64,000 nt of DNA from Leptolyngbyaceae cyanobacterium (GCA_965263355.1 CBDHHL010000032.1:2784001-2848000), one strand, 5' to 3'; counted from the first letter of the stretch, positions 4,034 to 47,507 are shown. The notes: a model not told the origin generated them from the sequence alone. Translations and numbers: made by a program.

Positions 4034-4205
4034 TCCTCACCCTCTGACGGATTGAATGAATATGTGCTTCTGAAGCAGCAGGATAACGGGTTACAGGCAT
4101 CTTGTAAAGATGATCGGGGCAACATATGAGATGATAATGGCTGCTAGTAAGTAGAATTTCAGGGTTACCTGTGATCTGTGACTATTCGCCCCTTTGTTTG
4201 AATGG

Positions 4206-5387
4206 ATGGAGACGCTCAACCTAATAATTTCCGATGAAACACTCCGAGAGGGAGAACAGCAGGTCGGGTTGTTTTTTGATGATAAGGCCGCACTTGCTCA
4301 ATTGATTTCCCAAACTGGCGTCCATCAGATTGCGCTGATGCCAGCCACCCATACCGCCGAGGCACAATTGGTTAAAAACCTGGCCAAACAGGGGCTACAA
4401 CAACAACTCGTTGCCTCTACCATGATGCGGCGATCAGCGATAGAGCATTCTAAAGATTGTGGTGTACGGCAAATAATTCTCTTTCATGCTGTCTCTGATC
4501 GACTCTTGTTTTTACGAGATCCAGCAGTTGCCGCTGATCCAAATCTGCATAGCAAAACAATTGATGAGGCGATCCCAGCGGCTGTTGTGCACCGCATTCG
4601 GCAGTCAATGTTAGCCAATGCCCTGGAACATGTGCGCTACGCTACTGATAAAGGATTGAGGGTTTGCTTTGCGGCTGAAGATGCTAGTCGAGCAGATTTT
4701 CACTTTTTGGTGGATTGTATTAATGCCTTAGGTCCCTATATTGACCAGTTTTTACTTTGCGATACGGTAGGCATTTTGACCCCTGAAAAAGCCTTTGTGT
4801 GGATTAGGGATTTACTGGAGTACACTCAATCGGTCCCCCTCTCAGTTCATTTTCACAATGATATGGGGCTGGCGTTGGAGAATACTATTCAAGCGGTACG
4901 GGCAGGGGCCATCGGTATTTCCGGGACGATGGGTGGGATTGGTGAACGGGCTGGCAATGCTCCATTGGATCAGGTACTGGGCGGTCTGCGGATGCGCTTT
5001 GGCTGGGAAGTGGCTGGCATTGATTACGATGCGGTTGATCGGGTGGTTGCTTATTTACACGATCAAGGTCACCGCCCCCATGCGCCCTATTCGCCTCAGG
5101 CCCAGCGCCATGAGTCGGGGATCCATGTGAGTTCATTGCTGCGCGATCGCAAAAGCTACACTGCCTTTCCCCACAGTCACCCTGATATTTGGTTTGGCAA
5201 ATGCAGCGGTGCCAGCAATTTGCAGTACCTGTTTGAGCATCACCTCAAGCAATCGCTCCAGCGCTCCCAGTATGAAAAGTTACGTTCAGCGATCAAAGCA
5301 ATTTCTATGCAAGAAAAACGCTCCTTTTCCGTCAACGAGGTGCTGGCCCTGATCGATGATCAGAACCTCCTCAGCAATCAAACATGA
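4206..5387 (+). CDS. LeuA/homocitrate-synthase-like acyl-CoA condensing enzyme (DRE-TIM metallolyase; HphA-like)
   Basis: ISDETLREGEQQVG, EDASRAD, LCDTVG, HFHNDMGLA, GIGERAGNA and HESGIH motifs; no C-terminal LeuA regulatory domain; ATG 4206 chosen over TTG 4194. Confidence 0.85.
   Translation: METLNLIISDETLREGEQQVGLFFDDKAALAQLISQTGVHQIALMPATHTAEAQLVKNLAKQGLQQQLVASTMMRRSAIEHSKDCGVRQIILFHAVSDRLLFLRDPAVAADPNLHSKTIDEAIPAAVVHRIRQSMLANALEHVRYATDKGLRVCFAAEDASRADFHFLVDCINALGPYIDQFLLCDTVGILTPEKAFVWIRDLLEYTQSVPLSVHFHNDMGLALENTIQAVRAGAIGISGTMGGIGERAGNAPLDQVLGGLRMRFGWEVAGIDYDAVDRVVAYLHDQGHRPHAPYSPQAQRHESGIHVSSLLRDRKSYTAFPHSHPDIWFGKCSGASNLQYLFEHHLKQSLQRSQYEKLRSAIKAISMQEKRSFSVNEVLALIDDQNLLSNQT
5124..5387 (+). 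repeat. Direct repeat copy 1 (264 bp; functional 3' end of the LeuA-like gene)
   Basis: catgtgagt...gcgatcgcaaaagctac...agcaatcaaacatga recurs at 6590-6852. Confidence 0.95.
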
Positions 5388-6928: not shown

Positions 6929-8635
6929 TTAATCAGGTAACCGATCGCTAATTGCCCCACAGACAGCTGAAATTGCCACTGTACGCGGTGAAGCCAAATA
7001 GTTAGACGCCGATGGAGCACCACTGCGACCCTTAAAATTACGGTTGGTGGCATAGATACCCACTTCCTTTTGGCCCAGCACCCCTTGCCCCGCATTAATG
7101 CAAGCACCACAGCCCGACTTTAAAACCTGTGCTCCAGCCTTTTCCAACTGTTCCACATAGCCCAGCTCCTCAGCCTGCCGCCGCACTTCTTGGGACGCTG
7201 GCACCACAAATAAACTAACCGTCGGGGCGATTTGTTGGCCCTTTAGCACAGCTGCTGCCTCAGCTAAATCGTGTAGCTTACCCCCAGTACAAGAGCCAAT
7301 AAAGGCTCGCGTAATCGGTACATGGCCCAGCTGACTGATGGAGACCACCTGATCCGGTTTGGGTGGATTGGCCACCTGCGGTTCCAGGTCAGTCAAGTCA
7401 AACCGATGGCTTTGTTCATAATCAGCATCTGGATCAGAGGTGACCTCATTAAAGGGAATAGACGTGCGAGTCTCTAAATATTGCCGAGTAATGTCATCTA
7501 CGGGAATCAGACCACAGATAGCACCACATTCAATGGCCATATTGGCCAGGGTCATACGTTCGTCCATGGGCAACTGTTCAATCACGGTGCCGCAAAATTC
7601 AATCACGTTTCCCGTGGCTCCATCACACCCGAGCTTACCTAAGAGCAACAACATAATGTCTTTGGCGCTAATGTGAGGCGGCAATATGCCAGCCAGTTCA
7701 ATTTTGATCGTGGCCGGCACCCGAACCCACACATCGCCCATGGCAAAAATGTTAGCCATATCTGTGGTACCAACACCCATGGAAAAACAACCAAATGCAC
7801 CATAGGTACAGCTATGGGAATCCGTGCCCGCAATGACCATACCAGGACGGATAAAGCCCTGTTCCGGCAACAATACATGACAAATACCGGCAGCTTCGCC
7901 CGGAGAGATCACATCAAATAAATGGCAGCCTTGTTGTTGGGCAAAGTCCACCATTTGTTGATGCATCAAAACGGCCCCATTATCCGGTCGGATATCGTTA
8001 ATTTGGATAAAATGATCGGCAACAAAAACAACTTTATCAGGATCCCAAACCGATGCATTATCACCAAAGTGTTGATGGAAAAGTTGACCGACGGGACCTG
8101 CGATCGCATCGTGGGACATCGCTAAATCAACATTAGCAAAGACAACCTCCCCCGGCTGCACATATCGATTGCCTGACGCCTGGGCCAACAACTTTTCAGT
8201 CATCGTCATGGGGCGTTCTCGAGTCAGGCTAGAAAGCGTTGAGATTTCACCCTGACGACGTTTCTGATTGTAGGCGATCAGACCACCCGCCCGAATAATA
8301 TCGTCTACTGCAGCCGTTGGGTGAGACGACTCTATAAACTCAAGGAATAGACCAATATTAATACTGTTACGATAAAAAATTTCAGCAAAGGACTTCGCCT
8401 TAACAGTTTGAATCCCAGCCGCCTTAATCGCAATCGGCGCAAACTCACGACTGGAACCACAACCAAAATTATAGCCTGCCTCAATCATGTCATATTGGCG
8501 CAGTATCCCCGGTCCCAGTAAATGCTCAAACGCATAATAAGCTAGATGCTCCAAGTCATCATTCGTACCCCGCTGTGCAGGAATGATATCATCAGTATTA
8601 ATATCATCCCCTAAATAAAGAATAGAGTTAGGCAT
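6929..8635 (-). CDS. Fused LeuD(small)-LeuC(large) isopropylmalate-dehydratase/homoaconitase-like enzyme (HphCD-like)
   Basis: N-terminal DINTDDIIP, NFGCGSSREFA and SFAEIFYRNSINIG (small subunit), then MTMTEKLLA, SHD, DH, GTDSHSCTYGA, FIGSCTGG, CGAC, NRNFKGR (large subunit with 4Fe-4S cysteines). Confidence 0.9.
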   Translation of the reverse strand: MPNSILYLGDDINTDDIIPAQRGTNDDLEHLAYYAFEHLLGPGILRQYDMIEAGYNFGCGSSREFAPIAIKAAGIQTVKAKSFAEIFYRNSINIGLFLEFIESSHPTAAVDDIIRAGGLIAYNQKRRQGEISTLSSLTRERPMTMTEKLLAQASGNRYVQPGEVVFANVDLAMSHDAIAGPVGQLFHQHFGDNASVWDPDKVVFVADHFIQINDIRPDNGAVLMHQQMVDFAQQQGCHLFDVISPGEAAGICHVLLPEQGFIRPGMVIAGTDSHSCTYGAFGCFSMGVGTTDMANIFAMGDVWVRVPATIKIELAGILPPHISAKDIMLLLLGKLGCDGATGNVIEFCGTVIEQLPMDERMTLANMAIECGAICGLIPVDDITRQYLETRTSIPFNEVTSDPDADYEQSHRFDLTDLEPQVANPPKPDQVVSISQLGHVPITRAFIGSCTGGKLHDLAEAAAVLKGQQIAPTVSLFVVPASQEVRRQAEELGYVEQLEKAGAQVLKSGCGACINAGQGVLGQKEVGIYATNRNFKGRSGAPSASNYLASPRTVAISAVCGAISDRLPD

Positions 8636-8683: not shown

Positions 8684-8728
8684 AAAAATAAGCAGCCTTT
8701 ACTATTAGCTAATAGTTAAACAGGCTGC
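8684..8728 (-). terminator. Intrinsic terminator downstream of the protease-TIMP gene pair
   Basis: Minus strand gcagcct...ctattagctaatag...aggctgc followed by ttattttt. Confidence 0.65.
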
Positions 8729-8880
8729 ACGGAAATTCTCTCCCTTTCAGAAAAACTATAGGAAGAACTGTATTGTTTCCGGAAAGGGAACACGGAGGGA
8801 CCCCAAGCAACATCTTTAAACTCTACACCAACCCCCCACTAAAACCTTAATCAGAAATACTCTTTACTTGTTAGCACCAC

Positions 8881-9324
8881 TCACAGACAAGGTCGAATCT
8901 TATGCAATTCCAATAAATCATCATTGGCTTGACTAAGCAACCGCGTGCGAGAACACTGATTAGTTCGCAAACTTCCCCCACGCTCTTGCCCATAAACCAA
9001 ATATGACTGCCCCACATCAAACATATAACCACAAGCAGCCATTGAAATCGGCGTTTGCACAACCACTGTATTCTCCAGATCACCTTTCCATATCTCGTCG
9101 ATGGCAAAAGTAACATTAAGTCTACCTTCACTGGTCTCTATCCCAGTCACCTCACCAGCAAAAACAACACTGGCCTCCATCAAAGCCTGCTCTGGAGGAA
9201 ATGGTGGTGCACAAGAGCATGAATAGGCCGGTTGGTTTGCCAGCACAATCAGACCTGTAGTCAATGTCAATCCGATTAGCAGAAAGAATTTGGCAGTTTT
9301 AGCGGGTATGAACTTGAGCATCAT
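8881..9324 (-). CDS. Secreted TIMP/NTR-like protein (putative metalloprotease inhibitor)
   Basis: Sec signal ending PAYS, mature start CSC-APP, then ASVVFAGEV, IWKG, ACGYMF, GQSYLVY and NQCS; the cysteine pattern matches the N-TIMP domain. Confidence 0.75.
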   Translation of the reverse strand: MMLKFIPAKTAKFFLLIGLTLTTGLIVLANQPAYSCSCAPPFPPEQALMEASVVFAGEVTGIETSEGRLNVTFAIDEIWKGDLENTVVVQTPISMAACGYMFDVGQSYLVYGQERGGSLRTNQCSRTRLLSQANDDLLELHKIRPCL

Positions 9325-9398
9325 GATTGAAATAGCCTTCTCTCATCACCCATGATAACGGTTGCAAGAGAAGGACTAGAACCGATTTGACATAGACC

Positions 9399-11132
9399 TT
9401 ATGCGTAAACAAAGTCTGCAGACGCAAACACATTAGTGGTGTCTTGCACTACTGCAATCACATCATCCTGGAAGGATATTACGGTATCAGTTGCACTGGT
9501 ACCAGCCCCTAGGCCAGTCCATTGTGTCACTTCTAAAGAATAATCGCTCAGCGTACCACTATCATAAACCTGGAATTTATCACCTTCTGCCCAATAGAAG
9601 TCAGTGATAATGGCATATCCAGCATCACCATCACCAGTGTAGTAGGCTCCTAAAGAATTTCCTAAAACAAACGTATCAGCACCGTCATTGGTGTCTTCAT
9701 CACCAGGTTGTGAGTAACCAAACTCTCCCGTTAAAGTATCAATCTCTCCTAAGGTACCGCCATAACCATTCAAGAAATCATCGCCACTTTCACCGATTAA
9801 TCTGTCTGACCCTGCCCCACCCAGGAGCGTATCATTGCCAGTCCAGCCAAGCAACGTATCCTCACCATTACCGCCAGACATCAAATCATCGCCAGTCCAG
9901 CCATCGATAAAATCGTTGCCTGATTCTCCATACAATGAATCATTCCCAGCACCACCATCGATAAAGTCGTTACCAAAATAGCCCAAGATAGTATCATCAC
10001 CATCTTTACCATAAAGGTCATCATCCCCAGACCAACCGTCGATGAGGTTGTTCGCAGCATTACCCGTAATCACATCATCACCAGCACCACCAATGGCATT
10101 TTCAATCACTACACCATTAGCAATGGTAAAGCCACCATAAATCCCTTCCACTGACGAGAGATAACCACCCGCATTCGGGCCAACGAGTGGAGCCTCATTC
10201 AGATTAATCGTAGCATCTCCCGTAGTGCTGTAGCCAACAGTGATAGTATCGACACCGCCTGCATCCCAGATACTGGAATAGAAAGTACCACTGGCATTAA
10301 CAGTTGGTAGCTCGTAGGTATCATTGCCGGTGTTGTAACTCATGTTAGCACCGTAAAGGGCCTGAATCGCTGCGATGTCAAGCGCCATAGGTGTGCCTTG
10401 ATAACCATAGCTGCTACCAACGGGCAAACCATCTGCAACGTTCCCATCGTTGTAGGTCATGGTTGTCCACAGACCCTGATTAAGTCCAAAATCGCCTGTA
10501 TCCCAGGGACTAGATACTCCTGGAAAAACAGAAGAGCCACCGCCTGCGTCATGGGGATGGGCAAGACCTAATCCATGGCCAATTTCATGGATCATCGTGA
10601 TAAAACCAAAGCCACCCTGCTGCAAGCCAGCAAAGTTCCAACCAAGACCTTGCCAGTTGAAATAGCCGATACCCATCCCTAAAGTGCCAGGAGGTTTCAT
10701 CATACCCAAGGCACCCAGCTGATTATCTGTAAGATACAGACCTAACGTGGCCTCTGCATCATTATCTGTAGACTCCACAAAGGTAATATTGGCGACGTTA
10801 CTCCAGGTTTCAAGCGCAGCTTCCATAGCTGCTTTTTCATAGTCAAACCAGTCATACGCTGTCGTTGCGTAGTTGCCATAGAAATCATCAAATGACTCTG
10901 ATCCATTTCCCCAAAAGGAATATTCGATCACGCCATCAGCCCCAACATCCCATTTATTACCGCCCCACAAAATGCTGTCGACATAGGTGTTACCGGTAAT
11001 CGGTGCATTGGTAGCAGGTAGAATTTTAGCTTCGCTGTTTTCAAGTACGCTACTTACTAGATCCTGATCGAGAAGACCATGTTTACAGCCAGAACCGCAA
11101 CCAGGGCCGCAAATGTGGTGATTATGAGGCAT
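9399..11132 (-). CDS. M10 family (serralysin/matrixin-like) zinc metalloprotease with RTX Ca-binding repeats
   Basis: HEIGHGLGLAHPH zinc motif, Met-turn TTMTY, TPMALDIAAIQALYG, IWDAGGVDT, IENAIGGAGDD and several GGxGxD repeats; no Sec signal peptide. Confidence 0.92.
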   Translation of the reverse strand: MPHNHHICGPGCGSGCKHGLLDQDLVSSVLENSEAKILPATNAPITGNTYVDSILWGGNKWDVGADGVIEYSFWGNGSESFDDFYGNYATTAYDWFDYEKAAMEAALETWSNVANITFVESTDNDAEATLGLYLTDNQLGALGMMKPPGTLGMGIGYFNWQGLGWNFAGLQQGGFGFITMIHEIGHGLGLAHPHDAGGGSSVFPGVSSPWDTGDFGLNQGLWTTMTYNDGNVADGLPVGSSYGYQGTPMALDIAAIQALYGANMSYNTGNDTYELPTVNASGTFYSSIWDAGGVDTITVGYSTTGDATINLNEAPLVGPNAGGYLSSVEGIYGGFTIANGVVIENAIGGAGDDVITGNAANNLIDGWSGDDDLYGKDGDDTILGYFGNDFIDGGAGNDSLYGESGNDFIDGWTGDDLMSGGNGEDTLLGWTGNDTLLGGAGSDRLIGESGDDFLNGYGGTLGEIDTLTGEFGYSQPGDEDTNDGADTFVLGNSLGAYYTGDGDAGYAIITDFYWAEGDKFQVYDSGTLSDYSLEVTQWTGLGAGTSATDTVISFQDDVIAVVQDTTNVFASADFVYA

Positions 11133-11543
11133 GACTTTTTAGCTCTCGTTAAATGCGTTGTTGATTATTTGGGCAAACTGATACTCACCCCTGATTGACT
11201 CCAGAGTAAGAAATATCTGTTGTAAAAACCTTGGTTCTTTGTGTCTGATTACCAACAGCTTTTGGAGAACGATCTTTCCGAAAAGTGCAATCTACATTTG
11301 AGCAGACATGACAGCCCCTAAAACTACCCGAGTGGGTACCTGCAATATCTCAATTCAAAGCCTACAATGGCTCGCCATGGGATCCACTAAGATTGGGTAT
11401 ACAAATTACAATGGAAGTGCTGGAGTTAGCAGATGGAGAGGGTAATGGCTAAGACTGCACTAAAGCTATGCCCCAAGGAATGGAAACACTGAATGGAAAC
11501 ACTACTCGACCACGCCTTACACCAGAGCCCGATGTAAGGACGC

Positions 11544-11880
11544 ATGGCAAAAGCAATTGACAGTAGCTGTCCATCTGATAGGAATTGGCACCAATTCCTA
11601 CTTGAGCAAATGGCAGCTGAGATTCCAGGAAAACGACCTGCTGTTAATGCCTCTTGCGTAGAACAGTAGCTGTCCATCTGATAGGAATTGGCACCAATTC
11701 CTACGCAAATGGCAGCTGAGATTCCAGGAAAACGACCTGCTGTTATAGAGCAGAGTATTAATGCTCTAAGCCTCTTGCGTAGAACGCGATATGTCACACG
11801 TCATATATACCCATTCAAAGTAGATGATTCGCGTATACAACAAGCTATTCAACAAATTAGATACTTGTTTAAGTTGTTTT
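11544..11880 (+). pseudogene. Degraded HepT-like (HEPN) ribonuclease toxin fragment with internal tandem duplication
   Basis: Translates as MAKAIDSSCPSDRNWHQFLLEQMAAEIPGKRPAV, then in a shifted frame ...IEQSINALSLLRRTRYVTRHIYPFKVDDSRIQ; resembles HepT-like WHxxLLxQM..EIP..RPAVI...RHxxRxxY. Stops and frameshifts are present. Confidence 0.6.
11561..11784 (+). repeat. Tandem duplication, ~103-bp period, 2 copies
   Basis: cagtagctgtccatctgataggaattggcaccaattcctac...ccaggaaaacgacctgctgtta...gcctcttgcgtagaa starts at 11561 and at 11664; the copies differ by small indels. Confidence 0.9.
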
Positions 11881-20900: not shown

Positions 20901-23900
20901 CTACCCAGCTACCTGGAAGTAAACATCCACCATGTCAATGGTGCTACCATGGCGCTTCGCAGTACTATGCTCACCGTGGACGTTGCCCTGAGCGTCAGCA
21001 CTAAATACGTTGGTGTAGTCAGTGCTCAGGTCAGTGATACCAGCGGATGTGAGGCTAGTTAGCTCACCTTCGTCAGTGAAGCCGTTCTCGTTAGAGTCTT
21101 GCCATAGACGAATCTCAGTAAACATGTCATCGGCTTCGTTGACCAGACCATCGCCATTGGAGTCAAAGGACTCAAGCTTAGCGAAACCAGCCCCGACAGT
21201 AGCACCACCGAACAGTTCAGCGCGGGAGGAGATGAGCCCATCACCATTGTTGTCAATGGCGAGGAATGCATCTTCACCGGAGAGCCATCCAGTATTGATA
21301 GCTGTGCCAGTGTTGCGCATGTCAAACATAACGCCTTCATCAATACTCAGGGTTTGAATGCCATCCCCATTAAGGTCGAAAGCTATGGGAGTTAGAGCGG
21401 TACCAATGGTGTTATTAATTTCACCTGCGTTTAGATTGAAAACACCGGTGCGCTGAGCAACTTTGGTACTAGTGCCCGAAATGATATCGGAATCTCTAGC
21501 ATCATCAGTGCCAGCATTGAACACGCTGGTAAAGGACCACCCTCTTTGTCCCGCAACTCCTGAAAATTGAGCGGTTCCATCTAATCGAGCCTTAGTGGTC
21601 AGATTAGTGGAGGCATCAAATTCAACATAGTAGGAGCCAGCCTTAACATTATCAAAGTTATAGAATCCAGATGTCCCAGTCAGAGTAGAATCCATTAGCT
21701 CACCACTTTGGGTGAAGAGGTTAACTAAGACATTAGAGAACCCCCCGGCTTCATAGTTGAGGTCGGCAGTATTTTGGATGCCATCATTACGATGACGGTC
21801 ATGCCACACTTGACCACCGACAGTCCCTAGCTTTTCAACAATTCCAGCGTCAATGGTAGAGTTGTGCTCACCAGGCTGTAGTGTAACAATCTGGCTCATA
21901 CCATTAGTAAGATTGGCATCAGAGTCAAGGGCATCGTTACCAATATTCTGTTGAGTAAACTCAAATGTAGATTCGGTCTCTACATCAAATTCAATACCGA
22001 ACTGATAATCCCGCTTGAGATGGGTCAACGTCCTGTAACCGGCTCTAGGAGAAGAGCCAATTTCAACTCCGCCAGCATGGTGCGCGTGCCATCCACCGGA
22101 GTACCAAATCTCATCGCCGCCATAGGTGAATCTAATGGCAGAATGCTGACTACCGGAGCCATCAGCATTGGCATCGATAAAGCCAATGGCCAATTTTTGA
22201 CCCGCCTCAAGGGTGACAGAAGGTGTACGACCATCAGCAAAGGCGAAGCTGTTCTGGCCTAACTGGTAGTTGGTCCGAGTAGTCCCTACTTCAAGGACAG
22301 TAAAGTCATTGTCGCCATTGACCAGAGCCACAAAGGGAGTGACAGGAGCCCCTGTTTTGCCAGCATTGAAATTGAAAGAGCTGAGGTCAATGGTCTGAGT
22401 TAAACCGGACTGGTTGGTATAGATATCGGCTTCGTTGACCACCATGTTGGACCGCCATCCATCAGTAACCCCACCACCTTTGAGTTCATTGCCCACTTGC
22501 CTCTGAGTGGGATGTTCATGGGAGTCACAGGTAACTAGTTGAACGTCATCAAGGAACGCCCCTAGACCATCAGAACGTCCAGCACCCCGAAATTCTAATC
22601 CAGTGGTAGCTTGATCACTACCTTCTACTTCGTAAGTGTAGGTTTTCCAACGGCTTTCGCGATGGCCAATGCCACTCTCTGAAATAGTATCAATGAGTTC
22701 ACCATTCCAGTACACTTCAATGGTGTTAGACCCAGCGCTTACCCCAGGACGACCCGCATAGGCAAAGGACAATTCGTAGGTTTGGCCAGTTTGAGTATCA
22801 ATCTCCTGACGGATGCCTGTATTTTCATAGCCATCCATTTCAACCCAAGATTGTCCTTCATCACCAGCACCAAAGTACTGATAAAGTTCTTGAACTTCGA
22901 TTCCTCGTCCCTGGGTAACTTGCCAGCCATCGAGACCAGACTCCACACGCCAGCGGTTCTGAGCTGTGTTATTTCGTTCGAAGCTACCATTCTGCACCAG
23001 GTTAGTAATTCCTTTGGCTTGAGGTAGACCGAAAGTGACTTTATATTCTTCGCCAGGATTAAGCTCATCGAAGCGGTAGTTGCCATTGGCATCGGTGATA
23101 GTTTCAGTAGTGGTGTCATCGTTACCAGTACCGATCACACCATCTGCACCACCGCCAGTTAGGGTAACCTTGACGCCTTCGACGCCCTGCTCACCAGTAT
23201 CTTGAATACCATCACCGTCAGTGTCATACCAGACACGATCGCCCAGGCTAGCGATCGCAGACTTAAAGAAGCCAGCATCCAACCGATCGTCAAAGTCCCC
23301 AGGCGCTAGGGTAATCACATTAGACATCAAACCAGCCCCTGCATCAGAATCGAAAGAGCTATCGAAACCGGCCTGAAAGGGGCTCACACCGTCAAACCCA
23401 TCGGGCTGAGTAAACATCACCCGGTAGTCGCCTTGAGTCAACCCAGTGAACTCATAGAAGCCATTTCCATCAGTGGTTGTGGTGTCCAACACATCATCAA
23501 CTTGACCATCGTTGTCAGTGTCGGCCAGCAGTTTCACCTCGACACCGGCAATTCCTTGCTCACCTGCATCTTGAATACCGTCAGCGTTGGTATCTTCAAA
23601 GACAAAGTTACCCAACCCAGCGGGTCTTACAATGCCTGCATCGAGAGTATCGTTGAAGTCGCCATCCTGGATAAAGACAGTTTGCGTGATCCCGTTTCGA
23701 CCCGCGTCAGAATCCAGCGCATCATCGCCACCTGCATTGGCTGTTGTAAAGACAAACCCCTCAGGGGCAACAAACATCACCTGATACTCACCGGGAGTGA
23801 GGTTAAAGAATGCGTAAGCACCCTGATTATCAGTGGTGGTTGTGATGGGGTTACCGTCATTATCAAGGGCAGCAGACCCATCAGGATTTAGCAATTTAAC

Positions 23901-25376
23901 AACAACGCCTTCTACACCTGCTTCATCAGCATCTTGAATACCATTGGCGTTATCGTCAAAGAAGACAAAATCACCTAAACCAGGGGTTCTTTGGTAGAAA
24001 CCAGCATCCAGCCGCTCGTCAAAGTCTCCTGGCGCTAAGGTGACCACATTAGACACTAGATTGTTGTCAGGATTTGCATCCGAATCTAGAGAGTTATCAA
24101 AGCCTGCCTGGAAGGGACTGACACTGTCAAACCCATCGGGCTGAGTAAACATCACTCGATAGTCACCTTGGGTTAAGCCAGTGAACTCATAGAAACCATC
24201 GGCATCTGTGGTGGTGGTCTTAACGACATCATCAACTTGACCGTCATTATCAGTGTCGGCCAGAAGCTTTACTTCAACACCTGCAATTCCCTGTTCGCCA
24301 GCATCTTGTTCTCCATTGGCATTGGTATCTTCAAAGACAAAGTTACCCAAGCCAGCCGATCTCACCAAACCTGCATCCAGGGTGCCATTAAATACATCAT
24401 CAGCTGCCATGACGATGGTTTGAGTCATCCCATTAAAAGGGTTAGCATCGGAATCTAGGGTGTCATCATTACCCACATTGGCATTGGTGAAGGTAAATCC
24501 TGCCGGTGGGATGAACATGACCTTATATTCACCAGCGGGCACTGTGAAGGAGTAAGCTCCGTTACCATCAGTGGTAGTAGTAATGGGGTTACCATTGCCA
24601 TCAACCACAGCAGAGCCGTCAGCATTCAACAATTTAACAACGACATCGCCTGCACCAAACTCATCGGCATCTTGCACACCGTTAGCATTGCTATCGTAGA
24701 AGACATAGTCACCCAAGCCTTTAAGATCCACAGCCGCAAACTGGATCTGGGCATCGGGGGCACCGTCACCATCGTTGTCAGGAACAATGATTACACCAAC
24801 TTTCTGACCATAGGTGGGGACAAAGCCTTCACCATTGGCACGGGCAGCCGCGACAATCTCATCTACCCGTTCTTGTTCCCAATATTGTCCTTCTTCACCA
24901 ACGCCACCAGCGGTCGAGTTTTCATCATCAATCAATGTCCAAATGGCTCTTTGGATATCGGCCCAAGTATAGTTACCACCACTGGGAGACGTTTGAAAGG
25001 TAAAATCTTGATTGATAATCCAGTTAAGTAAATCCAGGTTTTCTGGCTTTTCAATCAGACCTTGACCAACTAATTCATCCGGTAGGGGATCGTAGCTAGA
25101 ATAAACCTTGGCAGTGTAGCTGCCCCCTACTTCGTTGGTATTGGCATCAATTTGGCCGTTGAAGTTTTCATCTACACCAAAATCAATGGCTCGATCTGAG
25201 TCGATGCAAAAGCCATCAAAGGTACCATTTAACACGCCACCATCTTCGATCACCAGATCAACATAGCTAGTATCATTCGGATCATTCGGATCGCTGTAGT
25301 GATTATGAATACGATTAACAGCTTTCAATGTTAACTGTTGTGGCAAAGCCGCACTTAGAGATTTGATAGGATCCAT
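20901..25376 (-). CDS. Large surface adhesin: thioester-domain-like N-terminus, SdrD B-like repeats, DUF642-like carbohydrate-binding domain, C-terminal FrpC self-processing-module-like Ca-binding domain
   Basis: Repeats LG(D/N)xVFxDxNANGxQDAxE.G..GV.VKLL...TTTDxxGxYxF...DSDA...LDAG; NLVQNGSFE domain; N-terminal GFCID / IQRAIW; C-terminal TPIAFDLNGDG...TGW...DAFLAID.NGDG.I...ELFG. Confidence 0.85.
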   Translation of the reverse strand: MDPIKSLSAALPQQLTLKAVNRIHNHYSDPNDPNDTSYVDLVIEDGGVLNGTFDGFCIDSDRAIDFGVDENFNGQIDANTNEVGGSYTAKVYSSYDPLPDELVGQGLIEKPENLDLLNWIINQDFTFQTSPSGGNYTWADIQRAIWTLIDDENSTAGGVGEEGQYWEQERVDEIVAAARANGEGFVPTYGQKVGVIIVPDNDGDGAPDAQIQFAAVDLKGLGDYVFYDSNANGVQDADEFGAGDVVVKLLNADGSAVVDGNGNPITTTTDGNGAYSFTVPAGEYKVMFIPPAGFTFTNANVGNDDTLDSDANPFNGMTQTIVMAADDVFNGTLDAGLVRSAGLGNFVFEDTNANGEQDAGEQGIAGVEVKLLADTDNDGQVDDVVKTTTTDADGFYEFTGLTQGDYRVMFTQPDGFDSVSPFQAGFDNSLDSDANPDNNLVSNVVTLAPGDFDERLDAGFYQRTPGLGDFVFFDDNANGIQDADEAGVEGVVVKLLNPDGSAALDNDGNPITTTTDNQGAYAFFNLTPGEYQVMFVAPEGFVFTTANAGGDDALDSDAGRNGITQTVFIQDGDFNDTLDAGIVRPAGLGNFVFEDTNADGIQDAGEQGIAGVEVKLLADTDNDGQVDDVLDTTTTDGNGFYEFTGLTQGDYRVMFTQPDGFDGVSPFQAGFDSSFDSDAGAGLMSNVITLAPGDFDDRLDAGFFKSAIASLGDRVWYDTDGDGIQDTGEQGVEGVKVTLTGGGADGVIGTGNDDTTTETITDANGNYRFDELNPGEEYKVTFGLPQAKGITNLVQNGSFERNNTAQNRWRVESGLDGWQVTQGRGIEVQELYQYFGAGDEGQSWVEMDGYENTGIRQEIDTQTGQTYELSFAYAGRPGVSAGSNTIEVYWNGELIDTISESGIGHRESRWKTYTYEVEGSDQATTGLEFRGAGRSDGLGAFLDDVQLVTCDSHEHPTQRQVGNELKGGGVTDGWRSNMVVNEADIYTNQSGLTQTIDLSSFNFNAGKTGAPVTPFVALVNGDNDFTVLEVGTTRTNYQLGQNSFAFADGRTPSVTLEAGQKLAIGFIDANADGSGSQHSAIRFTYGGDEIWYSGGWHAHHAGGVEIGSSPRAGYRTLTHLKRDYQFGIEFDVETESTFEFTQQNIGNDALDSDANLTNGMSQIVTLQPGEHNSTIDAGIVEKLGTVGGQVWHDRHRNDGIQNTADLNYEAGGFSNVLVNLFTQSGELMDSTLTGTSGFYNFDNVKAGSYYVEFDASTNLTTKARLDGTAQFSGVAGQRGWSFTSVFNAGTDDARDSDIISGTSTKVAQRTGVFNLNAGEINNTIGTALTPIAFDLNGDGIQTLSIDEGVMFDMRNTGTAINTGWLSGEDAFLAIDNNGDGLISSRAELFGGATVGAGFAKLESFDSNGDGLVNEADDMFTEIRLWQDSNENGFTDEGELTSLTSAGITDLSTDYTNVFSADAQGNVHGEHSTAKRHGSTIDMVDVYFQVAG

Positions 25377-44419: not shown

Positions 44420-45547
44420 TTAGCTACGAATTTGCACAGGCATAACTAAATAGGTCATCTTCAAACCACTGACAGGCGTCAGAATTGCTGGACTCGTCGA
44501 TGAGTTACACTGCAGTTGAATTTCACTACTGGGCAAAGCTCGAAGCCCCTCTAACAGGTATCTCACATTAAAAGCAATATCCAGATCATCACCGGTCACT
44601 TGAGCAGCCATTTCCTCCCGGCCGCTGCCAACCTCCTGGGCTTCTACTGAAAGTGCCAATATCTGCTCTGAACCAGTAATGGACAACTTCACAATATTAT
44701 TACGCTGATCTGCAAGCACACCGATACGCTCTAAGGCCGACATAAGTTGCTTACGATCTATTGTCAGCTGCCGCTCAAACTGCTTAGGAATAAGTTGACG
44801 ATAGTTGGGATACTGACCTTCCAGCAGGCGAGTTGTAATGCGCTGATGTCCTAGTTCAAAGACAACTTGAGTGGGATTAAATCTGAGGGAAATCGGTTCA
44901 GTGCCTTGATAGGACTGCAGTAGACGCTCTAATTCTCGCAGTGCCTTGCCAGGGACAGTGACATCAATAGAAAGATCTACCCCTGAATCATCTACACTTT
45001 GCACTACGGCTAATCGATGACCATCAGTGGCAGCAAACTCTAAGTTTTCAGGCTCTGCGACAACATGGACACCAGTCAGTACTTGTTTTGTCTCATCAGA
45101 GCTAGTAGCAAATAAAGCCCCGCGTAAACCTTCTAAAATTGACTCTGCAGAAACGCTTGCTATCTGTCCATCTTCCACCAAAGGCAAATTAGGATAGTCA
45201 GTCGCTTCCATGCCCCGCACCTGATATTCCCCAGCCGAACAGGTGAGTGTGATTACCGGTTCTGTTGGTGATTGGCTAAAATCCAAATCTTCTGACGGAA
45301 GTTTAGCAACAATGTCACCTAGCAATTTGGCCGGCACAGTTAAAATACCCCCCTCATCCACATGGGCAGAGAAACTGGTTTGAATCCCAAGCGTTTCATC
45401 AAAGCTGGTAAGGGTTATGCGCTGTGAATCTTCATCCACATTGACCAAAATATTTGCCAACACGGGCTTGTTGGGCCTGGAAGGAACTGCCCGACTGACA
45501 ATTGAAAGGTGTGTGTTGAGATCCCCCTGGGAGCACACGAACTTCAT
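44420..45547 (-). CDS. dnaN: DNA polymerase III beta sliding clamp
   Basis: MKFVCSQ start, ATDGHRLA, GQYPNYRQLIP, IAFNVRYL, YLVMPVQIR; directly downstream of dnaA. Confidence 0.97.
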   Translation of the reverse strand: MKFVCSQGDLNTHLSIVSRAVPSRPNKPVLANILVNVDEDSQRITLTSFDETLGIQTSFSAHVDEGGILTVPAKLLGDIVAKLPSEDLDFSQSPTEPVITLTCSAGEYQVRGMEATDYPNLPLVEDGQIASVSAESILEGLRGALFATSSDETKQVLTGVHVVAEPENLEFAATDGHRLAVVQSVDDSGVDLSIDVTVPGKALRELERLLQSYQGTEPISLRFNPTQVVFELGHQRITTRLLEGQYPNYRQLIPKQFERQLTIDRKQLMSALERIGVLADQRNNIVKLSITGSEQILALSVEAQEVGSGREEMAAQVTGDDLDIAFNVRYLLEGLRALPSSEIQLQCNSSTSPAILTPVSGLKMTYLVMPVQIRS

Positions 45548-45659
45548 GGCTGACATATGTCTATCAAGAATGCTGGCCAATCGTAACACCCTGACAGAAG
45601 GATGGAAAGCCTTTATTTTAAGCAATTTTCATTACTCTGTTTTCTATATCTGTTTCCTT

Positions 45660-46000
45660 ATTAGATTTAAATCATAGTAGTAGTAGGGCTTGTGGAAACT
45701 GTGGAAAACCTTATCGTAAGCCTTCTATACAAGGCAATTGACTGAAAATAGCTATGGGGAAAAAGTGTGGATATTTAAGGACGTTTTCCACAGGATGTTA
45801 GAGAGTTAAATCTTTTTCCCCATTGCCTATGCCTTTCTCCCCAGCTAATCCCCAAACTTTCCACAGCTAAAATAGAGTTTTCCACAAGCTTATGCTCCCC
45901 CGTTTTGGAACTAAATTTAATATTTCCAATGCTTTATCAGATAAATATTTCGATTTTGAAAGTTCTGCAGTACTAGTTTTCCAGAAGCTTTTTCACAGGA
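45660..46000. other. Replication origin oriC (DnaA-box cluster, DnaA-trios, AT-rich unwinding region)
   Basis: Boxes tgtggaaac 45691, tgtggaaaa 45700, tgtggatat 45766, ttttccaca 45784, ctttccaca 45857, ttttccaca 45878 plus degenerate ones; tagtagtagtag trios at 45675-45686; lies between dnaA and dnaN. Confidence 0.9.
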
Positions 46001-46049
46001 TGCTACCCATAGAACGAGCCTTGAAGGATAGTTATTAACTACTTGGTCA

Positions 46050-47414
46050 CTAATTGGAGCGGTTACTCAGGCTGATTCGATCACTTAACTCACGTACTGT
46101 TTGAGCCATATTGAGATCTTTCTTAATCAGTTGAGTGATTTTATCGCAGCTGTAGAGTACTGTAGTGTGATCTTTTCCGCCAAAAACTTCACCTATTTTG
46201 GGCAGGCTTAAGTCCGTATGTTTTCGCATTAGGTACATTGCGACCTGACGAGCTTGACTAATTTCGCGTCGTCGAGAATTGCCCTTTAGCGCTTCTACAG
46301 GAATATTTAAAACTTCGGAAACGATATCGATCACTGATGTAGGAGAGGCATCTACTTTACCTGCGGGAGCATCAAGCACAGGCTTGAGGTTTTCAATGGT
46401 CATGGGTAGACCGGAAATGGATGTGTAGGCGATGGCTCGAATGAGTGCTCCTTCTAGTTCTCGAATGTTGGAGGTGTAACCAGAGGCAATGTACTCGGTT
46501 ACCTCGCGACTAAGTGTGACGTTCTCGTACTCGGCTTTTTTCTGCAGAATAGCCATCCTGGTTTCAAAATCAGGAGGCTGAATGTCAGCAATTAATCCCA
46601 TGGAAAACCGTGAACATAGTCTTTCCTGCAGCCTAGGGATTTTATTGGGTGGACGGTCGGACGCGAGTACAATCTGTTTGCCTGCTTCATGCAGTGTATT
46701 AAAGGTGTGGAAGAACTCCTCTTGCGTGTATTCTTTACCTTCAATAAACTGGATATCATCGACCATAATGATGTCAACTGCGCGATATTGCTCACGAAAG
46801 CGCTGCATGCTGTCACGGCGAATGGATGTAATCAAGTCATTGGTAAACTGTTCGGTGGAAACGTAGGCAATGCGAGCAGTTTTATCAATATCTAAACGGT
46901 AGTGGCCGATCGATTGCATCAAATGAGTTTTGCCTAGACCAACACCGCCACACAAAAATAAGGGATTAAATTCACGACCGGGTGATTCTGCGACAGCTAG
47001 GGCTGCAGCATGTGCCATGCGATTATTAGAGCCGACAACGAACCTTGAAAAGACAGCCTTAGGGTTTAGGTCTGGAGGGTTTGATTTGCTGCTATTTGTC
47101 CGCTCATTCGTTTGAACAGGTGGCCAGGCAACAGCTTCTCCTGTTCGATTGCTATTACCATTACTGGCTTCGCTAACGGTGACTACGATATTGATTTCCT
47201 GACCTAAGAGTTCTTGGGCAACATCGGAAATAACTTGAATGTAGTGTTTCTGGACCCAGTTTCGGGCGAAAGGATTGGGAGTGGAAATAGTCAGGGTGCT
47301 GTCAGCCAATGTTTGGAGGCGTGTTGGTTTGATCCACGTCTCAAATGTGGGACCACTGAGCTGGTCCTGAAGTTTATTGAGGACTTCATTCCAAAGACCA
47401 TCTACGTTATCCAC
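46050..47414 (-). CDS. dnaA: Chromosomal replication initiator DnaA
   Basis: [67 protein letters not shown]; start placed at GTG 47414 behind GGAGG. Confidence 0.98.
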
Positions 47415-47415
47415 A
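47407..47415 (+). promoter_or_regulatory. Perfect DnaA box overlapping the dnaA start codon
   Basis: TTATCCACA at 47407-47415. Confidence 0.6.
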
Positions 47416-47465
47416 ACTACCCCTCCGGCTAAAGGTAAGTGCACTCTGCACCGATCATTAAGTTT

Positions 47466-47507
47466 TTTCATAGCTGTGCTTTCCTAACGTTAAGCACAGC
47501 TATGAAA
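47466..47507. repeat. 16-bp perfect inverted repeat in the dnaA upstream/leader region
   Basis: tttcatagctgtgctt-N10-aagcacagctatgaaa. Confidence 0.85.

Follow-up and report, generated by a model that had tools for sequence, protein, structure and literature searches.

A TIMP-family gene beside a serralysin-like protease gene in a cyanobacterium: a candidate protease-inhibitor pair

Does a small protein encoded next to a bacterial metalloprotease gene inhibit that protease, and might it do so in the manner of animal TIMPs? The question is raised by a 64,000-nucleotide stretch of DNA from a Leptolyngbyaceae cyanobacterium (GCA_965263355.1, CBDHHL010000032.1:2784001-2848000; hereafter the window). 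In the preliminary description, an M10 RTX protease gene was followed 74 bp later on the same strand by a TIMP-type gene, and the two were taken as a protease/inhibitor module. Both open reading frames and the gap were confirmed, and for each gene those close relatives that are named belong to cyanobacteria. Two contigs from public runs span positions 8794-11600 without any difference, although they may be the window's own source.

The protease and its small neighbour

The 577-aa open reading frame at 9399-11132 on the minus strand encodes a serralysin-like M10 zinc metalloprotease with RTX repeats (P0002), as judged from profile matches and from sequence matches in the structure database. Matches above the Pfam cut-off were obtained for M10_C (PF08548, E 2.9e-15) and RTX (PF00353, E 3.4e-27), while the matrixin match falls just under its cut-off. 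The features of a serralysin (M10B), namely an HEXXHXXGXXH motif with a Met-turn and a C-terminal RTX domain, are all present. The zinc motif HEIGHGLGLAH occupies residues 182-192 (10557-10589, minus strand) and is supported by the aligned relatives. The Met-turn TTMTY lies at residues 223-227 (10452-10466, minus strand), its M225 being invariant across 106 aligned relatives, and the calcium-binding RTX repeats form five PF00353 stretches at about residues 348-460 (9753-10091, minus strand). All three had been named in the preliminary description and were recovered. Searched against the PDB, its sequence matches protease C and serralysin best (E 1e-20) and MMPs far less well, at E 1.6e-4 at most. 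Since the NCBIfam serralysin model NF035945 scores 164 bits (E 6.7e-48) against a subfamily cut-off of 500 bits, we call the enzyme serralysin-like.

No hydrophobic N-terminus was seen on reading the protease sequence. Its C-terminal tail (9402-9770, minus strand) recurs in many cyanobacterial RTX proteins, with matches in 37 of 52 genomes from a single taxonomic family, and is probably a type I secretion signal. A His/Cys-rich segment at residues 1-18 (11079-11132, minus strand) is a possible cysteine-switch propeptide; it showed no conservation among the close relatives aligned.

Downstream of the protease gene, the 147-aa open reading frame at 8881-9324 on the minus strand encodes a single-domain N-TIMP protein (P0001) by profile, alignment and predicted fold. 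It passes the PF00965 TIMP profile with 24.9 bits against a cut-off of 23.1 over residues 35-126, and in the alignment its residue 36 falls opposite the first residue of N-TIMP-2. The structure predicted from a 100-row alignment has a pLDDT of 93.5, and a Foldseek search with this model returned TIMP chains at all of ranks 1-18, headed by TIMP-1, TIMP-3 and TIMP-2 (best E 2.3e-8). In a wide structure search, model residues 36-147 were superposed on residues 1-119 of N-TIMP-3 with a Z-score of 15.7 and an rmsd of 2.5 over 111 aligned residues, and other NTR domains scored lower, with Z-scores of at most 11.1 (PCOLCE1 NTR, 11.1). The model comparisons confirmed a predicted OB/NTR fold of the N-TIMP type, which resembles TIMPs more than it does other NTR domains. 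P0001 is a TIMP-family member. The Inh/AprI profile (PF02974) gave no match in P0001 at E ≤ 0.1.

A predicted signal peptide covers P0001 residues 1-35 (9220-9324, minus strand) and ends in P-A-Y-S, with a hydropathy of up to 2.7 and a helix at residues 8-28 in the model. It precedes Cys-Ser-Cys (9211-9219, minus strand), the predicted mature N-terminus and zinc-binding wedge, which aligns with TIMP residues 1-3 by both sequence and structure and is invariant in the 10 proteins of the clade described below. Among 169 relatives with an early Cys-X-Cys, 120 have Ala at -3 from Cys1, 153 have Ala at -1 and 151 have Ser at +2; in P0001 the context is A-Y-S before and C-S-C after the cut. This conservation strongly indicates a putative signal-peptidase-I type site directly before Cys1 of P0001, a cleavage context that fits the mature N-terminus predicted in the preliminary description.

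The mature protein has cysteines at positions 1, 3, 63, 89 and 111. The four core cysteines are invariant across the clade; C98 and C124 (mature 63 and 89) align with the TIMP-2 partners of Cys1 and Cys3, and the alignment to TIMP-1/2 suggests Cys1-Cys63 and Cys3-Cys89 disulfides. Met49 occupies the Cys13 position of vertebrate TIMPs and the third N-domain disulfide pair is absent, which leaves Cys111 (C146) without its usual partner; the Cys13 disulfide is a vertebrate TIMP feature outside the family cut-off. The final cysteine, formerly listed among the N-TIMP motifs, is thus present in P0001 but lacks this partner, and it is missing from three of eight clade members.

Between the protease and TIMP genes, the 74-nt gap contains a hairpin (9333-9378, minus strand; z -2.09, 5 of 200 shuffles as good). 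Another with a T-rich tail (8684-8728, minus strand; z -2.08, 12 of 200 shuffles as good) is a possible terminator; it lies 152 nt past the stop codon of the TIMP gene, and the next start codon follows after 48 nt. The hairpin described earlier as the terminator of the pair thus exists, but as a candidate: a terminator scan made no call at this site. Because this element is weak and a similar hairpin lies in the gap, a single transcript for the protease and the TIMP is no more than possible. A short element 3' of the TIMP gene (8773-8830), with read depth about sixfold up and many unrelated contigs matching, is a repeat dispersed in the organism's genome; a second copy was not found in the window.

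Linkage to M10 genes within one clade

In a 103-row tree of 118 columns, from which five short or weak rows and two duplicates were dropped, the window TIMP falls within a 10-row cyanobacterial clade with support of 98/93, the bootstrap being not fully settled. The DNA context covers eight of the 10 rows. An M10 gene lies within about 3 kb of the TIMP gene at six of these eight loci, one further locus is a probable case, and at the remaining one the contig ends too early. The gene order at the seven linked loci is tandem in two and convergent in five, and two protease subtypes are involved.

The M10 gene is directly upstream on the same strand in the window and at L002 (G002), at 74 and 92 nt, respectively. 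At L001 (G001), the genes converge at 133 nt, and the C-terminal half of the M10 gene is followed by the contig end. At L214 (G328), an IS605 TnpB gene lies between the TIMP gene and a convergent M10 gene. L213 (G316) has a convergent M10 gene for a 1,509-aa protein 3.05 kb away, beyond two intervening genes; on its other side, the TIMP gene is flanked by a divergent gene for an S8 RTX protease. This G316 partner is 33% identical to the catalytic region of the window protease, and the G001 partner is 82% like that of G316. At L224 (G506), the convergent tail is 91% identical to the M10 protein P0032, and the contig overlaps by 55 exact bases another contig ending in an M10 gene 91-94% identical to P0032; the overlap and the identity of both parts to P0032 led us to count this locus as linked. 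In the same genome (L265:75-2653), two M10 genes stand in tandem, and in the copy that faces the TIMP gene a frameshift follows the catalytic domain.

At L249 (G648), a convergent tail at 32 nt is 68% identical to the M10 protein P0033, and a cut-off M10 half is found elsewhere in the assembly. The strongest 10 tail matches in 52 genomes fall five on M10 genes and five on frames of 274-325 aa, and the C-terminal tail alone was therefore rejected as an M10 marker and L249 is counted as probable only. The contig of L226 (G433) ends 151 nt downstream, and no M10 gene was found in the incomplete G433 genome with the query used.

Outside the clade, neither an M10 gene nor a tail match was found at any of 91 loci (93 TIMP frames; 80 with at least 1 kb and 58 with 3 kb on both sides), and the idea that all bacterial TIMPs pair with M10 proteases was rejected on this count. 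The chance rate of an M10 gene so close is about 0.0007 per locus (24 M10 matches in 394 Mb). The linked loci share descent, amounting to one change on the tree, and are not independent counts; Fisher tests, which take no account of kinship, were therefore not read as probabilities. Our argument thus rests not on their number but on the linkage having persisted where genes were inverted or inserted, where the flanks are new and where the protease is of a second subtype. Separate searches found the linkage in Coleofasciculaceae and in two or more further groups of cyanobacteria. The TIMP genes of the clade are under purifying selection (dN/dS of 0.08-0.54 in 12 of 15 pairs from six genes, the other three pairs being saturated). 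The G002 TIMP is shortened to 97 mature residues and lacks the last helix. G002 and G328 each hold TIMPs of other clades too, and those are not near M10 genes. The TIMP-M10 linkage is confined to one small cyanobacterial clade.

Seen from the protease side, the picture differs. Among the 14 close M10 orthologues of the genomes searched (at least 60% identity over the catalytic region), a TIMP gene lies beside three (G002, G328 and G506) and probably a fourth (G648), nine have none nearby (one of them with just 674 nt downstream), and one runs off its contig. None of 79 metagenomic M10 loci has a TIMP gene, and 40 of these loci extend 700 nt or more downstream. In G103, the FhaB-M10-ShlB arrangement seen in G002 recurs with a protease 94% identical, but there is no TIMP gene. 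The link is thus one-way, kept from the TIMP side in the clade and mostly absent from the protease side. Since most close M10 orthologues have no TIMP, the proposed inhibitor is optional. The neighbourhood survey called for by the preliminary description therefore bears out the M10 linkage in the TIMP's own clade and not beyond it. The module proposal is likewise upheld by the clade linkage but not as an operon in general, because five of the seven linked loci are convergent; a fixed operon closed by a terminator was rejected given this mostly convergent order and the weak hairpin.

A proposed inhibitor and its alternatives

Compared with animal TIMPs (PF00965, MEROPS I35), whose hallmarks we took from what PMC9409782 gives of them, P0001 has the same predicted OB/NTR fold, a predicted signal peptide ahead of Cys-X-Cys, and aligned partner cysteines of Cys1 and Cys3. 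It differs in being bacterial and single-domain, with 21-25% identity and no Cys13 pair, and its proposed target is a serralysin-type enzyme instead of an MMP or ADAM. Eubacteria are already reported to have TIMP-domain proteins (Brew and Nagase 2010, as cited in PMC3516229), and the idea that P0001 is the first bacterial TIMP was rejected for this reason. For the same reason, the label of a prokaryotic analogue of the MMP-TIMP system, used in the preliminary description, has to be replaced: the inhibitor side is a homologue and not only an analogue, and the protease is of the serralysin type, not the MMP type. Other bacterial TIMP-domain proteins are of the same family as P0001, but its clade is tied to M10 genes and the others sampled are not. 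In the open-access literature, we found no paper giving bacterial TIMPs a target, none connecting a PF00965 protein with a gene of the serralysin type, and none on cyanobacterial TIMPs.

Serralysins of Pseudomonas, Serratia and Erwinia with Inh/AprI (PF02974) resemble the pair in combining an RTX M10 protease with an adjacent exported inhibitor whose free N-terminus sits on the zinc (PMC4070987). Here, by contrast, the partner matches PF00965 and not PF02974, the order is often convergent, and no type I secretion genes were found among the window's scanned ORFs of at least 150 aa. The Listeria Mtz-Tim pair likewise consists of adjacent metzincin and TIMP-like genes in bacteria; in the sections of PMC8235301 consulted, Tim differs in being a lipoprotein with a TIMP likeness by Phyre2 only that is cleaved by Mtz, and no inhibition is described. 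The potempins of Tannerella, exemplified by PotA with karilysin, are encoded next to the bacterial M10 protease that they specifically inhibit, and PotA has an OB barrel; PMC9890683 describes potempins as lipoproteins with another binding mode, unrelated to TIMPs in the authors' view, and reports that PotA did not inhibit serralysin. The pair is thus a variant of the known design of a protease with an adjacent inhibitor, built from two known families.

We consider it reasonably probable that the small gene encodes a cognate inhibitor of the adjacent protease, with the free Cys1 capping the catalytic zinc and doing the job of AprI. To go by its family, the protease would leave the cell without a signal peptide via type I secretion and fold on calcium through its RTX repeats. 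The TIMP would be exported by Sec, and cleavage after A-Y-S would free Cys1, with the two predicted disulfides holding the wedge. By analogy with animal TIMP-MMP pairs, for which entry of residue 2 into S1' is established, the amino group and carbonyl of Cys1 would cap the zinc and Ser2 would enter S1'. In the animal proteins, the Cys1 amine and carbonyl occupy the zinc, according to the sections of PMC9409782 and PMC4860685 on this point. According to PMC4070987, AprI also uses a free N-terminus to bind the serralysin-type zinc, and fusing a partner to that end blocks it; serralysin active sites thus accept an N-terminal zinc mode. The inhibitor would shield the cell envelope, as AprI/Inh does in Pseudomonas, and would be an optional accessory acquired by one cyanobacterial TIMP clade, not part of a fixed operon. 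A type I substrate should bypass the periplasm, which counts against this reading; how periplasmic AprI meets a protease that is not normally periplasmic is a puzzle already raised in PMC4070987.

It is tempting to speculate further, in a version we regard as doubtful, that the clade consists of true Cys1-wedge inhibitors of serralysin-type proteases that act extracellularly, within the sheath or the mat matrix formed by filamentous cyanobacteria. Protease and inhibitor would be expressed separately, which would account for the convergent genes, and would balance matrix turnover like animal MMPs and TIMPs. On that account, the TIMP-metzincin mechanism would not be an animal invention, and thousands of other bacterial TIMPs would inhibit other metzincins.

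The TIMP fold, the core cysteines, the clade linkage, purifying selection and AprI's N-terminal mode count for a cognate inhibitor, and the one-clade descent, the TIMP-less M10 orthologues, G103, the shortened G002 TIMP and the frameshifted G506 protease count against it. The TIMP could instead be a broad inhibitor of foreign or several of its own metzincins, or a non-inhibitory NTR-type binder, placed near M10 genes via secreted-protein gene regions or by one joint transfer. This would fit the lack of M10 genes at all 91 out-of-clade TIMP loci, the many M10 orthologues without a TIMP, the restriction of linked loci to a single clade, and the presence nearby of FhaB/ShlB two-partner secretion genes and of a gene for an S8 RTX protease. 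However, the linkage holds across at least three cyanobacterial groups despite inverted gene order, inserted genes, changed flanks and a different M10 subtype, and the other TIMP clades in G002 and G328 are not near M10 genes; we thus find this explanation unlikely.

Linkage alone leaves the sign of an interaction undefined, and the TIMP might be a functional partner of another kind, a substrate, chaperone or activator of the protease, as the Listeria metzincin that cleaves its TIMP-like neighbour illustrates (PMC8235301). But Tim, in the same paper, is a lipoprotein resembling TIMPs by Phyre2 only and "not in sequence", and P0001 keeps a complete inhibitory N-terminus and a putative signal-peptidase site before Cys1 that such roles would not need, which makes a role of this kind improbable. 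Chance adjacency of two unrelated genes could draw on the hairpin between them and on both families being common. With an M10 gene at six of seven judged clade loci, against none of the 91 others and the very low chance rate, this repeated and rearranged linkage largely refutes chance, and we hold it to be highly improbable.

Bacterial TIMPs, on record since 2010, run into thousands, and this clade names a candidate target next door. Inhibition of metzincins by a bacterial TIMP becomes testable with two small recombinant proteins. If it holds for the cognate inhibitor proposed here, TIMP specificity would extend to serralysin-type enzymes and a second scaffold would be found doing AprI's job, with a bearing on the origin of the animal MMP-TIMP system.

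The wider TIMP family and other genes of the window

In the family at large, 9,651 clusters of PF00965-type relatives (50% identity) matched at E ≤ 0.001. Bacterial TIMPs are very common and most have no M10 neighbour; since most lack a metzincin neighbour, the family is likely to have other targets or roles. Among 52 genome loci from many phyla, an M10 match was seen at L001 and L002 only. Cyanobacterial genomes with a TIMP match numbered 32 of 301, 23 of 52, 13 of 172, 11 of 401, 1 of 17 and 29 of 401 in overlapping sets; 9-20 candidates were scored per genome in the larger sets, and context comprised wider stretches for 46 matches and 1.5-kb flanks or none for the remainder. One unpublished genome (G309) enters only the denominators of the 52-genome searches, the M10 genome search and the 394-Mb size sum. 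No further clade member was found in 17 genomes of the order of G648, and 401 genomes of the order of G002 held only G002 and G316. A plasmid search gave three weak matches.

Several relatives have unusual contexts or architectures. At the myxococcal locus L050, the TIMP gene has an M66-like metzincin gene (L050:4325-6292) directly upstream on its own strand, which may be a separate instance of pairing, here with a different metzincin family. Among cyanobacterial TIMPs from outside the clade, fusions to PrcB_C, DUF6174 or META domains occur (L177:4994-5851, L170:4605-5441, L168:2159-2965). PrcB is part of a Treponema protease complex, and the PrcB_C fusion hints at other protease partners for these TIMPs. 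A 654-aa relative (P0258) combines a TIMP-like domain, a membrane segment and a serpin within a single frame, which may in fact join two neighbouring inhibitor genes. P0146, P0147, P0148, P0153 and P0163 contain two or three TIMP-like domains in tandem, with long repeat regions after them in some cases. Divergent cyanobacterial TIMP-like domains (L159-L161, L163, L164 and L166) start with A-C-S-P or A-C-K-P instead of C-X-C and bear repeated TW..GCLG modules.

Elsewhere in the window, an HMGL-like gene of the homocitrate/isopropylmalate synthase type (4194-5387) and an aconitase-family gene encoding a single chain that begins with the fused small-subunit domain (6929-8635) flank a DUF6036 nucleotidyltransferase gene and a 103-aa ORF. 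A 1,491-aa protein with seven SdrD_B repeats (20901-25376) is likely a surface adhesin. The region 44420-47471 holds dnaN and dnaA, the cumulative GC skew has its minimum at 44-46 kb, and a replication origin is probably located near these two genes.
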